Below are positions 60,413 through 61,219 of a stretch of 64,000 bases of DNA, piece after piece; the stretch's first letter is position 1, and every line of letters starts with the position of its first letter. The position numbers and the translations under genes were made by a program. The notes beneath the pieces were generated by a model. It had not been told where the DNA came from. It did no database searches and saw nothing but the letters and a program-made list of their open reading frames with translations. Origin of the DNA: Escherichia coli (GTDB lineage Bacteria; Pseudomonadota; Gammaproteobacteria; Enterobacterales; Enterobacteriaceae); NCBI RefSeq assembly GCF_016903815.1, contig NZ_CP069973.1; one strand, 5' to 3'.

Positions 60413-60596
60413 ATTTCTCTGAGATGTTCGCAAGCGGGCCAGTCCCCTGAGCCGATATTTCATACCACAAGAATGTGGCGCTCCGCGGTTGGTGAGCATG
60501 CTCGGTCCGTCCGAGAAGCCTTAAAACTGCGACGACACATTCACCTTGAACCAAGGGTTCAAGGGTTACAGCCTGCGGCGGCATCTCGGAGATTCC
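60413..60596 (+). ncRNA. ssrS: 6S RNA (regulator of sigma70 RNA polymerase)
   Basis: ATTTCTCTGAGATGTTCGCAAGCGGGCCAGTCCCCTGAGCCGATATTTCATACCACAAGAATGTGGCGCTCCGCGGTTGGTGAGCATGCTCGG... matches 6S RNA, downstream of zapA and upstream of fau. A -10-like TAGAGT lies just upstream. Confidence 0.88.
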
Positions 60597-60670
60597 CTTC
60601 TTATCTGGCACCAGCCATGACGCAACTACCAGAACTCCCACTGATATTATCCCGACAAGAAATCCGCAAA

Positions 60671-61219
60671 ATGATTCGGCAACGTCGTCGTGCGTTAACG
60701 CCGGAACAACAGCAGGAAATGGGTCAACAAGCCGCTACCCGGATGATGACTTATCCCCCGGTGGTGATGGCACATACGGTCGCTGTATTCCTCTCTTTTG
60801 ATGGCGAACTCGACACCCAGCCACTCATAGAACAACTCTGGCGCGCCGGTAAGCGCGTATATCTTCCAGTTTTGCATCCCTTTAGTGCCGGTAATTTGCT
60901 GTTCCTGAATTACCATCCGCAAAGCGAACTGGTGATGAACAGGTTGAAGATCCATGAGCCAAAATTGGATGTGCGTGACGTGCTCCCCCTTTCCCGATTA
61001 GACGTCCTGATCACCCCCCTGGTCGCCTTTGATGAGTACGGTCAGCGCCTGGGAATGGGCGGAGGTTTTTATGATCGGACCTTACAAAACTGGCAGCACT
61101 ATAAAATGCAACCGGTGGGTTATGCGCATGATTGTCAGTTGGTGGAAAAACTCCCCGTTGAAGAGTGGGATATCCCACTGCCTGCGGTGGTTACACCGTC
61201 GAAAGTCTGGGAGTGGTAA
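60671..61219 (+). CDS. fau: 5-formyltetrahydrofolate cyclo-ligase
   Basis: Start MIRQRRRALTPEQQQEMGQQAATRMMTYPPVVMAHTVAVFLSF gives 182 aa. The track ORF (60473) and an alternative ATG at 60617 extend into the 6S RNA region. The start is uncertain. Confidence 0.85.
   Translation: MIRQRRRALTPEQQQEMGQQAATRMMTYPPVVMAHTVAVFLSFDGELDTQPLIEQLWRAGKRVYLPVLHPFSAGNLLFLNYHPQSELVMNRLKIHEPKLDVRDVLPLSRLDVLITPLVAFDEYGQRLGMGGGFYDRTLQNWQHYKMQPVGYAHDCQLVEKLPVEEWDIPLPAVVTPSKVWEW

Follow-up and report, generated by a model that had tools for sequence, protein, structure and literature searches.

Where does translation of the Escherichia coli fau (ygfA) gene begin? The gene follows ssrS, the gene for 6S RNA, and the boundary between the two is not self-evident from the open reading frames (ORFs). 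In the stretch of E. coli DNA analysed here (64,000 nucleotides in all, referred to below as ‘the window’), the longest + strand ORF at this locus runs from position 60473 to 61219. It is 248 amino acids (aa) long, and its ATG is situated 60 nt within the 6S RNA. Two more ATGs occur in the same frame, at 60617–60619 (residue 49 of the 248-aa ORF) and at 60671–60673 (residue 67). Between 60473 and 60617 the window contains no further in-frame ATG, GTG or TTG, and from the end of the 6S RNA to 60653 it contains no in-frame GTG or TTG; just sporadic ones are found in this interval in other species.

We conclude, with a probability of roughly 0.85, that the locus is the classical ssrS–fau (ygfA) unit and that 60617 is the principal start of fau, giving a protein of 200 aa. 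The 182-aa start given in the curated K-12 and UniProt records is in all likelihood wrong, or at most a minor, lineage-specific secondary start. The 248-aa proteins that have been deposited are, judged by comparison of sequences, artefacts of a frame that is open by chance.

The locus and its 6S RNA

The gene order is zapA–ssrS–fau–(sibC/ibsC)–serA. When 5426 complete E. coli genomes were compared with the region from 60300 to 61300, all but one (5425) matched it at 94–100% identity, and the zapA–ssrS–fau segment is 98.9–100% identical to E. coli chromosomes. An Rfam scan of the whole window matched the 6S RNA model, RF00013, to positions 60413–60596 (+), scoring 139.8 bits where the gathering score is 46.4 (E = 2.2e-28). 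This match is far above chance level. It covers the model completely (positions 1–187 of 187), and the covariance alignment agrees with the consensus structure line, with just two non-canonical pairs flagged. The closing stem, formed by the 5′ and 3′ ends of the RNA, is retained in the minimum free energy (MFE) fold. PGAP annotates ssrS at these same positions and the curated K-12 record agrees to within 1 nt. The statement in the first-pass annotation of this DNA that a 6S RNA lies directly 5′ of fau is borne out. For the identical E. coli RNA, passages of PMC3299989 describe binding to the σ70 RNA polymerase holoenzyme, and pRNA templating, as established.

The annotations of 6S RNA differ by 1 nt at the 3′ end: the curated K-12 RNA is 183 nt long and ends at 60595, and the PGAP and Rfam versions are 184 nt long and end at 60596. 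This discrepancy is consistent with exonucleolytic trimming from a longer precursor. Two short motifs that flank the mature RNA are conserved across the Enterobacteriaceae: GAAGA, beginning 9 nt 5′ of mature 6S (window 60404–60412), and (C)CUUCU, directly after the 3′ end (60597–60602). They pair with one another in the MFE fold of the 6S precursor, and in this predicted structure they may form a processing stem that joins the 5′ leader to the 3′ trailer. Both motifs are invariant, and so the pairing does not lend itself to a test by covariation. Just 5′ of the 6S start there is a candidate promoter (Table 1) whose position fits the proximal ssrS promoter, and which may be ssrS P1 (Kim & Lee 2004).

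Table 1. Features of the ssrS–fau locus, in window coordinates
Feature	Position	Strand	Basis or remark
σ70-like promoter match (ATGACA, 18 nt, TG-TAGAGT)	60368–60397	+	Consensus match only; such matches occur at chance number in the region
ssrS, 6S RNA (184 nt)	60413–60596	+	Rfam RF00013; same coordinates in PGAP
ATG opening the 248-aa ORF, judged spurious	60473–60475	+	Frame open into 6S in Escherichia only
Pyrimidine-rich 20-nt leader, 6S 3′ end to fau start, without Shine–Dalgarno	60597–60616	+	Shine–Dalgarno duplex energy; composition
fau (ygfA) CDS, 5-formyltetrahydrofolate cyclo-ligase, 200 aa, best-supported extent	60617–61219	+	Conservation, profiles, TetRP, PGAP
Variable N-terminal extension (TQLPELPLILS)	60620–60652	+	Frame kept; C-rich, G-poor, rut-like together with leader
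R-Q-E-I-R codons, start of conserved cyclo-ligase domain (basic-x3-Arg motif)	60653–60667	+	Profile position 1 at 60653
Internal Met codon, curated K-12/UniProt fau start (182 aa)	60671–60673	+	NC_000913.3, 5FCL_ECOLI

Public annotation of fau

Public records of fau disagree about the start. PGAP places it at 60617 in all five of the records inspected, with a product of 200 aa, or of 198 aa where there is a 6-nt deletion. The curated K-12 record, NC_000913.3, begins fau (b2912) at 3056241, the equivalent of 60671 in the window, and the resulting 182-aa form is also the one in UniProt (5FCL_ECOLI; P0AC28). The two ATGs that the first-pass annotation had singled out as candidates for the true start, 60617 and 60671, are thus exactly those on which the competing annotations divide. 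Its warning that automated annotation might fuse or mis-start these genes was apt, too. In look-ups of exact sequences, the fused, 248-aa form is found on at least 1000 contigs (e.g. ABV07306.1 from E. coli HS, CBJ02606.1 and AJE57453.1). In this form the first 48 residues, beginning MWRSAVGEHARSVREALK, are read from the 6S RNA. The 200-aa form is likewise found on at least 1000 contigs, as is the 182-aa form in the allele of the window; the 182-aa form in the K-12 allele is found on 571.

Some of the variation in these records is allelic. Codon 60644 is ATA (Ile) in the window strain and ACA (Thr) in K-12, and the protein of the window strain is WP_000192742, not WP_000192748. The N-terminal extension of E. 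coli fau is also polymorphic for length: an in-frame 6-nt indel (60641–60652 in the window; locus L003, 1818–2414) separates 198-aa from 200-aa alleles. Forms of 198 aa occur in E. albertii and E. fergusonii as well.

Where the cyclo-ligase domain begins

Fau is, by its sequence, a member of the 5-formyltetrahydrofolate cyclo-ligase (MTHFS) family, to which the literature assigns the ATP-dependent conversion of 5-formyl-THF into 5,10-methenyl-THF. It matches PF01812 with 162.1 bits (cut-off 27), TIGR02727 with 178.7 bits (cut-off 84.9) and NF007661, an NCBI equivalog model of 198 positions, with 445.3 bits (cut-off 343). Position 1 of both PF01812 and TIGR02727 falls on residue 61 of the 248-aa ORF (codon 60653), six residues upstream of Met67, and position 2 of NF007661 is aligned to residue 52. 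Residues 1–51 of the 248-aa ORF are covered by no protein-family profile. When translation starts at 60617, the domain is complete, and includes the N-terminal basic-x3-Arg helix. A start at 60671 loses profile positions 1–6, and the 182-aa protein is therefore truncated inside the conserved domain.

The conservation of this segment can be gauged from an alignment of 131 near-full-length family proteins, of no more than 50% mutual identity, that were gathered from 1.84 billion cluster representatives. Codon 60665 (R17 in the numbering of the 200-aa protein) corresponds to Arg in 129 of the 131, position 16 to Leu or Ile in 92%, and codon 60653 (R13) to Lys or Arg in 82%; the R13 and R17 columns are filled in 128–129 of the proteins. 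The position of Met67, in the same alignment, is unconserved, and is occupied by Gln, Thr, His, Lys or Ala. Among the orthologous loci described below, both motif arginines are 100% conserved in the 57 in which 30 nt separate the ATG from the codon for R61. Structure alignments pair R13 and R17 with K10 and R14 of human MTHFS, and with K3 and R7 of the Aquifex protein; the two human residues, we assume, contact the ATP phosphates in the structure. The peptide between the 60617 start and this motif is of a different character. It is rich in Leu, Ser, Thr, Pro and Gln and variable in sequence, and it is maintained in length and frame. Alignment to curated fau/ygfA proteins had been proposed in the first-pass annotation as a check on the start; profiles and the 131 representatives alike place the beginning of the domain upstream of 60671.

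Conservation of the start across species

For comparison between species we used 68 orthologous loci, one per species, in 67 of which the 6S RNA was located. The genera include Escherichia, Citrobacter, Enterobacter, Klebsiella, Kosakonia, Kluyvera, Trabulsiella, Aggregatibacter and Colwellia, and the set also includes Salmonella arizonae. These loci are phylogenetically related, and so the counts given here, and the p-values derived from them, overstate their independence. All 68 have a counterpart of the 60617 ATG in the fau frame. It precedes the conserved R61 codon by a whole number of codons in every case (−30 nt in 60 loci and −36 nt in the five Escherichia species), and in 64 of the 67 loci it lies 12–24 nt (median 20) past the 3′ end of the 6S RNA. 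The position of 60671, in comparison, is ATG in 14 of the 68, and otherwise specifies L, I, V, H, Q, T, F, Y or E; the 54 loci without Met at this position have no alternative start nearby. Both ATGs occur in all of the Escherichia loci and in a few other genera.

From the conserved ATG to the domain, the sequence behaves as coding sequence would. Indels in this interval are multiples of 3 only (64 loci), and the fau frame is interrupted by stops in none of the 64, compared with 61 and 49 for the other two frames. Upstream, it does not. Outside Escherichia the frame that leads into the 6S RNA is shut by stops 96–126 nt upstream of the R61 codon, which makes the 248-aa ORF an accident peculiar to Escherichia. 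The first-pass annotation had noticed that this ORF begins within the 6S RNA (60473 lies inside 60413–60596) and had looked for the true start downstream; the lack of conservation of the 60473 ATG, and the stops in its frame in other genera, show that suspicion to have been sound.

Three loci, from Klebsiella spallanzanii (L033), Enterobacter sp. 10-1 (L040) and an uncultured Klebsiella (L051), have an insertion of 99–125 nt between the 6S RNA and the fau ATG. The inserts share a core (...tgtattaaacta/tgtattacact...), and the fau ATG that follows them is still without a Shine–Dalgarno (SD) sequence.

The leader and the composition of the 5′ end

Complementarity to the anti-SD 5–10 nt upstream of the start codon, the mark of a canonical SD, is absent from all three ATGs. 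Pairing with the anti-SD amounts to −1.5 kcal/mol at 60617, and to −0.7 kcal/mol both at 60671 and at 60473. In 39 neighbouring genes, analysed on the own coordinates of a RefSeq record that is identical at this locus and not colinear with the window over 50 kb, the median is −5.9 kcal/mol (zapA, −7.8), and the SD of fau is the second-weakest. Weak pairing is also the rule among the orthologues, with energies from −2.9 to +3.0 in 66 of 68 loci; set apart from these are L067 (−5.4) and the Colwellia locus, L064 (+1.2), in which 6S RNA was not located.

In place of an SD, the start is set in a stretch of unusual composition. Averaged across species, the leader between 6S RNA and fau is 0.40 C, 0.10 G and 0.33 T. 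Leader and N-terminal extension together (~50–55 nt; 64 species) are 0.36 C and 0.10 G, a C/G ratio of ~3.5, compared with 0.93 in the remaining gene. The depletion of G extends to third codon positions, where its frequency in the extension is 0.09, versus 0.37 in the remaining gene (paired Wilcoxon p = 4e-12, on loci that are phylogenetically non-independent). By its excess of C over G around the start, fau ranks first of the 39 neighbouring genes.

When the window sequence is folded, the AUG at 60671 is predicted to be unpaired with a probability of 0.76, and that at 60617 with a probability of 0.22; in the MFE fold, the AUG-ACG at 60617 pairs with two Arg codons, CGU-CGU, close to 60690. 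Sequestration of the start codon was considered as a conserved regulator of fau, and rejected: the median pairing probability across 64 species is 0.01. The pairing of 60617 with ~60690 is not conserved, and it therefore does not amount to a conserved translational switch.

Initiation profiling and the choice between starts

Initiation in E. coli has been mapped by tetracycline ribosome profiling (TetRP; Nakahigashi 2016; PMC4909307). Row 100 of Table S2 in that study places initiation of ygfA at the −54 ATG, 3054209 in U00096.2, which is 60617 in the window, and assigns it to confirmation class ‘1. new site’, meaning ‘signal mainly at the new site’. Across the three libraries the −54 ATG has values of 150.5, 4.68 and 0.62, and the annotated start has 0, 1.75 and 0.33; only one library of the three gives a strong signal, and in the other two the sites differ no more than 2–3 fold, at very low counts (PMC4909307). 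An independent scan of intergenic ATGs in the same study lists ‘alt-N(new) ygfA -54’, a protein of 200 aa starting ATGACGCAACTACCAGAA, and lists no site besides 3054209 in the ssrS–ygfA interval. The column for N-terminal peptides in Table S2 is blank for YgfA, the TRAINSPOTTER supplements have no entry for ygfA, fau or P0AC28, and Giess 2017 has no start-site entry for ygfA/fau.

According to the curated view, fau starts at 60671 and the 54 nt upstream are untranslated. The K-12 record and UniProt keep this start, its AUG is predicted to be the more accessible of the two in the window sequence, and two of the TetRP libraries register some low signal there. Set against these points are the absence of the methionine from 54 of 68 species, with nothing close by to replace it, and the behaviour of the supposedly untranslated 54 nt, which keep an open frame and change in length by multiples of 3 only. 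A protein begun at 60671 would also be deprived of the first six Pfam and TIGR positions, among them the Arg found in 129 of 131 relatives; the site has no better an SD (−0.7 kcal/mol) to offer; and the TetRP class puts the signal mainly elsewhere. We regard this view as very improbable. A compromise, in which 60617 yields the full-length protein in Escherichia and 60671 serves as a secondary start for a shorter proteoform without the N-terminal basic motif, has more to recommend it, since both ATGs are present in every Escherichia locus and in a few other genera, TetRP gives 1.75 and 0.33 at 60671 beside 4.68 and 0.62 at 60617 in two libraries, and many genes were found to have dual starts in the same study (PMC4909307). 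We nevertheless consider it unlikely. The counts at 60671 are near noise, the TetRP authors classed ygfA under ‘new site’ rather than ‘both sites’, and the short product would be without near-invariant residues. Met67, moreover, is unconserved outside a few genera, and so any second proteoform would be specific to those lineages.

The 248-aa ORF, for its part, would be real if translation were to begin at 60473, within the 6S RNA, and the 48 residues encoded there were to form the N terminus. The frame is open in all Escherichia loci, and the protein appears in many GenBank records, but we find this scarcely credible. Essentially all of the genera other than Escherichia have in-frame stops within 6S, and the ATG itself is embedded in a highly structured RNA that is conserved as an RNA family. 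It is without an SD, no family profile reaches residues 1–51, the TetRP intergenic scan has only 3054209 here, and PGAP uses 60473 in none of the five records. Conservation, domain structure and initiation profiling all point instead to 60617.

A possible contest between ribosomes and Rho

That the ncRNA and the coding sequence are transcribed together, as the first-pass annotation supposed, is stated in passages of PMC2848244 and PMC3299989. We found no intrinsic terminator between ssrS and fau; the sole terminator-like match in the region is within the CDS, at 61046, and such matches occur there at chance frequency. A passage of PMC3299989 attributes the 3′ end of 6S RNA to Rho-dependent termination within ygfA, and credits this to Chae et al. 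2011.

With 60617 as the principal start of fau, the unit is most probably expressed as follows. Transcripts from the ssrS promoters first give 6S RNA (60413–60596). Polymerases that go on transcribe fau, and translation from 60617, 20 nt past the mature 3′ end of 6S, gives the 200-aa enzyme. In the tentative part of the scheme, the G-depleted tract of ~55 nt, in which the leader is joined to the first 12 codons, would act as the Rho-loading (rut) region for termination within ygfA. Since initiation at 60617 is SD-less and presumably weak, most transcripts would be terminated by Rho, and these would become the 3′ precursors of 6S RNA. Fau would then be expressed only from transcripts that carried a loaded ribosome, or that escaped Rho.

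We offer the step in which Rho competes (the tract being the rut site, and translation opposing termination) tentatively, as a possibility whose chances are somewhat below even. The broader proposal, that the G-poor tract is a conserved dual element for Rho loading and SD-less ribosome loading, and that the competition sets the ratio of 6S RNA to Fau, is plausible but less likely than not. If it were correct, the N-terminal peptide would be expected to drift in sequence and to keep its length and frame, as it does, because it would be shaped by selection on the nucleotides, for avoidance of G even at synonymous positions. Part of such a ribosome-versus-Rho element may have been anticipated by Chae et al. 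2011. Equally possibly, the scarcity of G at the beginning of the coding sequence could simply be the result of selection to keep structure low where initiation is SD-less. The candidate rut tract, at ~55 nt, falls short of the usual length of rut regions, and SD-less initiation could itself be served by such a composition.

Neighbouring genes

Directly downstream of fau is the gene for the SibC antitoxin RNA (Rfam RF00113, 133.8 bits; window 61245–61395, + strand), with the gene for the ibsC toxin on the opposite strand. Some strains of E. coli have a second, tandem copy of the Ibs-family toxin, and ~390 bp extra between fau and serA (locus L073, 1621–1680 and 2013–2072). Elsewhere in the window, the Rfam scan identified the small RNAs OmrA and OmrB in tandem on the − strand (19844–19931 and 20047–20128; 96.6 and 86.1 bits), as well as a single gene for a tRNA (33863–33933, − strand).

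In locus L075, fau is next to serA (47608–48840) and ~6–10 kb from gcvTHP (36599–41098). The functions of these genes are linked to that of fau, given that SHMT makes 5-formyl-THF with glycine and that a ygfA deletant is unable to use glycine as a nitrogen source (PMC3223725). The proximity of fau, gcvTHP and serA may be coincidental synteny.

Comparison with known systems

Much of what has been described here is already published, namely the 6S RNA, the enzyme family, co-transcription, Rho dependence and the −54 start, and the NCBI pipeline uses 60617. The issue that remains is a discrepancy of curation, which calls for correction of the curated 182-aa start as well as of the deposits of 248 aa. 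The main value of the analysis accordingly lies in the quality of annotation: NC_000913.3, the reference record in widest use, and P0AC28 describe a 182-aa Fau that would be without the near-invariant N-terminal Arg, and the 248-aa chimera is carried by deposits on at least 1000 contigs. Whoever takes fau from such records for cloning, modelling or expression may obtain a truncated or an extended protein. The locus has a secondary interest. Its SD-less start, set in a rut-like tract, follows a stable RNA by 20 nt, and so provides a small natural model of how initiation and Rho termination apportion output between an ncRNA and an enzyme.

The closest known system is the dual-function ssrS–ygfA (fau) transcription unit of E. 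coli itself (Hsu et al. 1985; Chae et al. 2011, J Biol Chem 286:114). It is the same locus with the same gene order, and biologically there is no difference between the two, the window strain having Ile for the K-12 Thr at 60644. Viewed as a protein, Fau resembles the MTHFS family at large (PF01812, TIGR02727; PDB 2jcb, 1ydm, 1sou and 3hxt), with a full-length match that, given the 60617 start, takes in the basic-x3-Arg motif. The enterobacterial proteins differ from the family in adding to this a variable extension of 10–12 residues, rich in Leu, Ser, Thr and Pro, with G-depleted coding.

Viewed as a transcription unit, the locus is reminiscent of the Rho-dependent terminators that act early in coding regions under inefficient translation and are responsible for classical transcriptional polarity, with which it shares a C-rich, G-poor segment and a weak initiation site. 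In ssrS–fau this segment lies directly downstream of a stable RNA, and Rho-dependent termination in ygfA is published (PMC3299989). The locus departs from classical polarity in that termination yields a functional RNA precursor, that of 6S, where polarity would leave an aborted mRNA; a role for the tract as the rut site in this is our proposal. Finally, fau has its counterparts among genes that initiate without an SD on pyrimidine-rich, unstructured leaders: anti-SD pairing is missing, pyrimidines predominate in the leader and G is scarce in the 5′ coding sequence. What sets the fau leader apart from others of this kind is its upstream limit, 20 nt away, where a very stable RNA ends in its closing stem.
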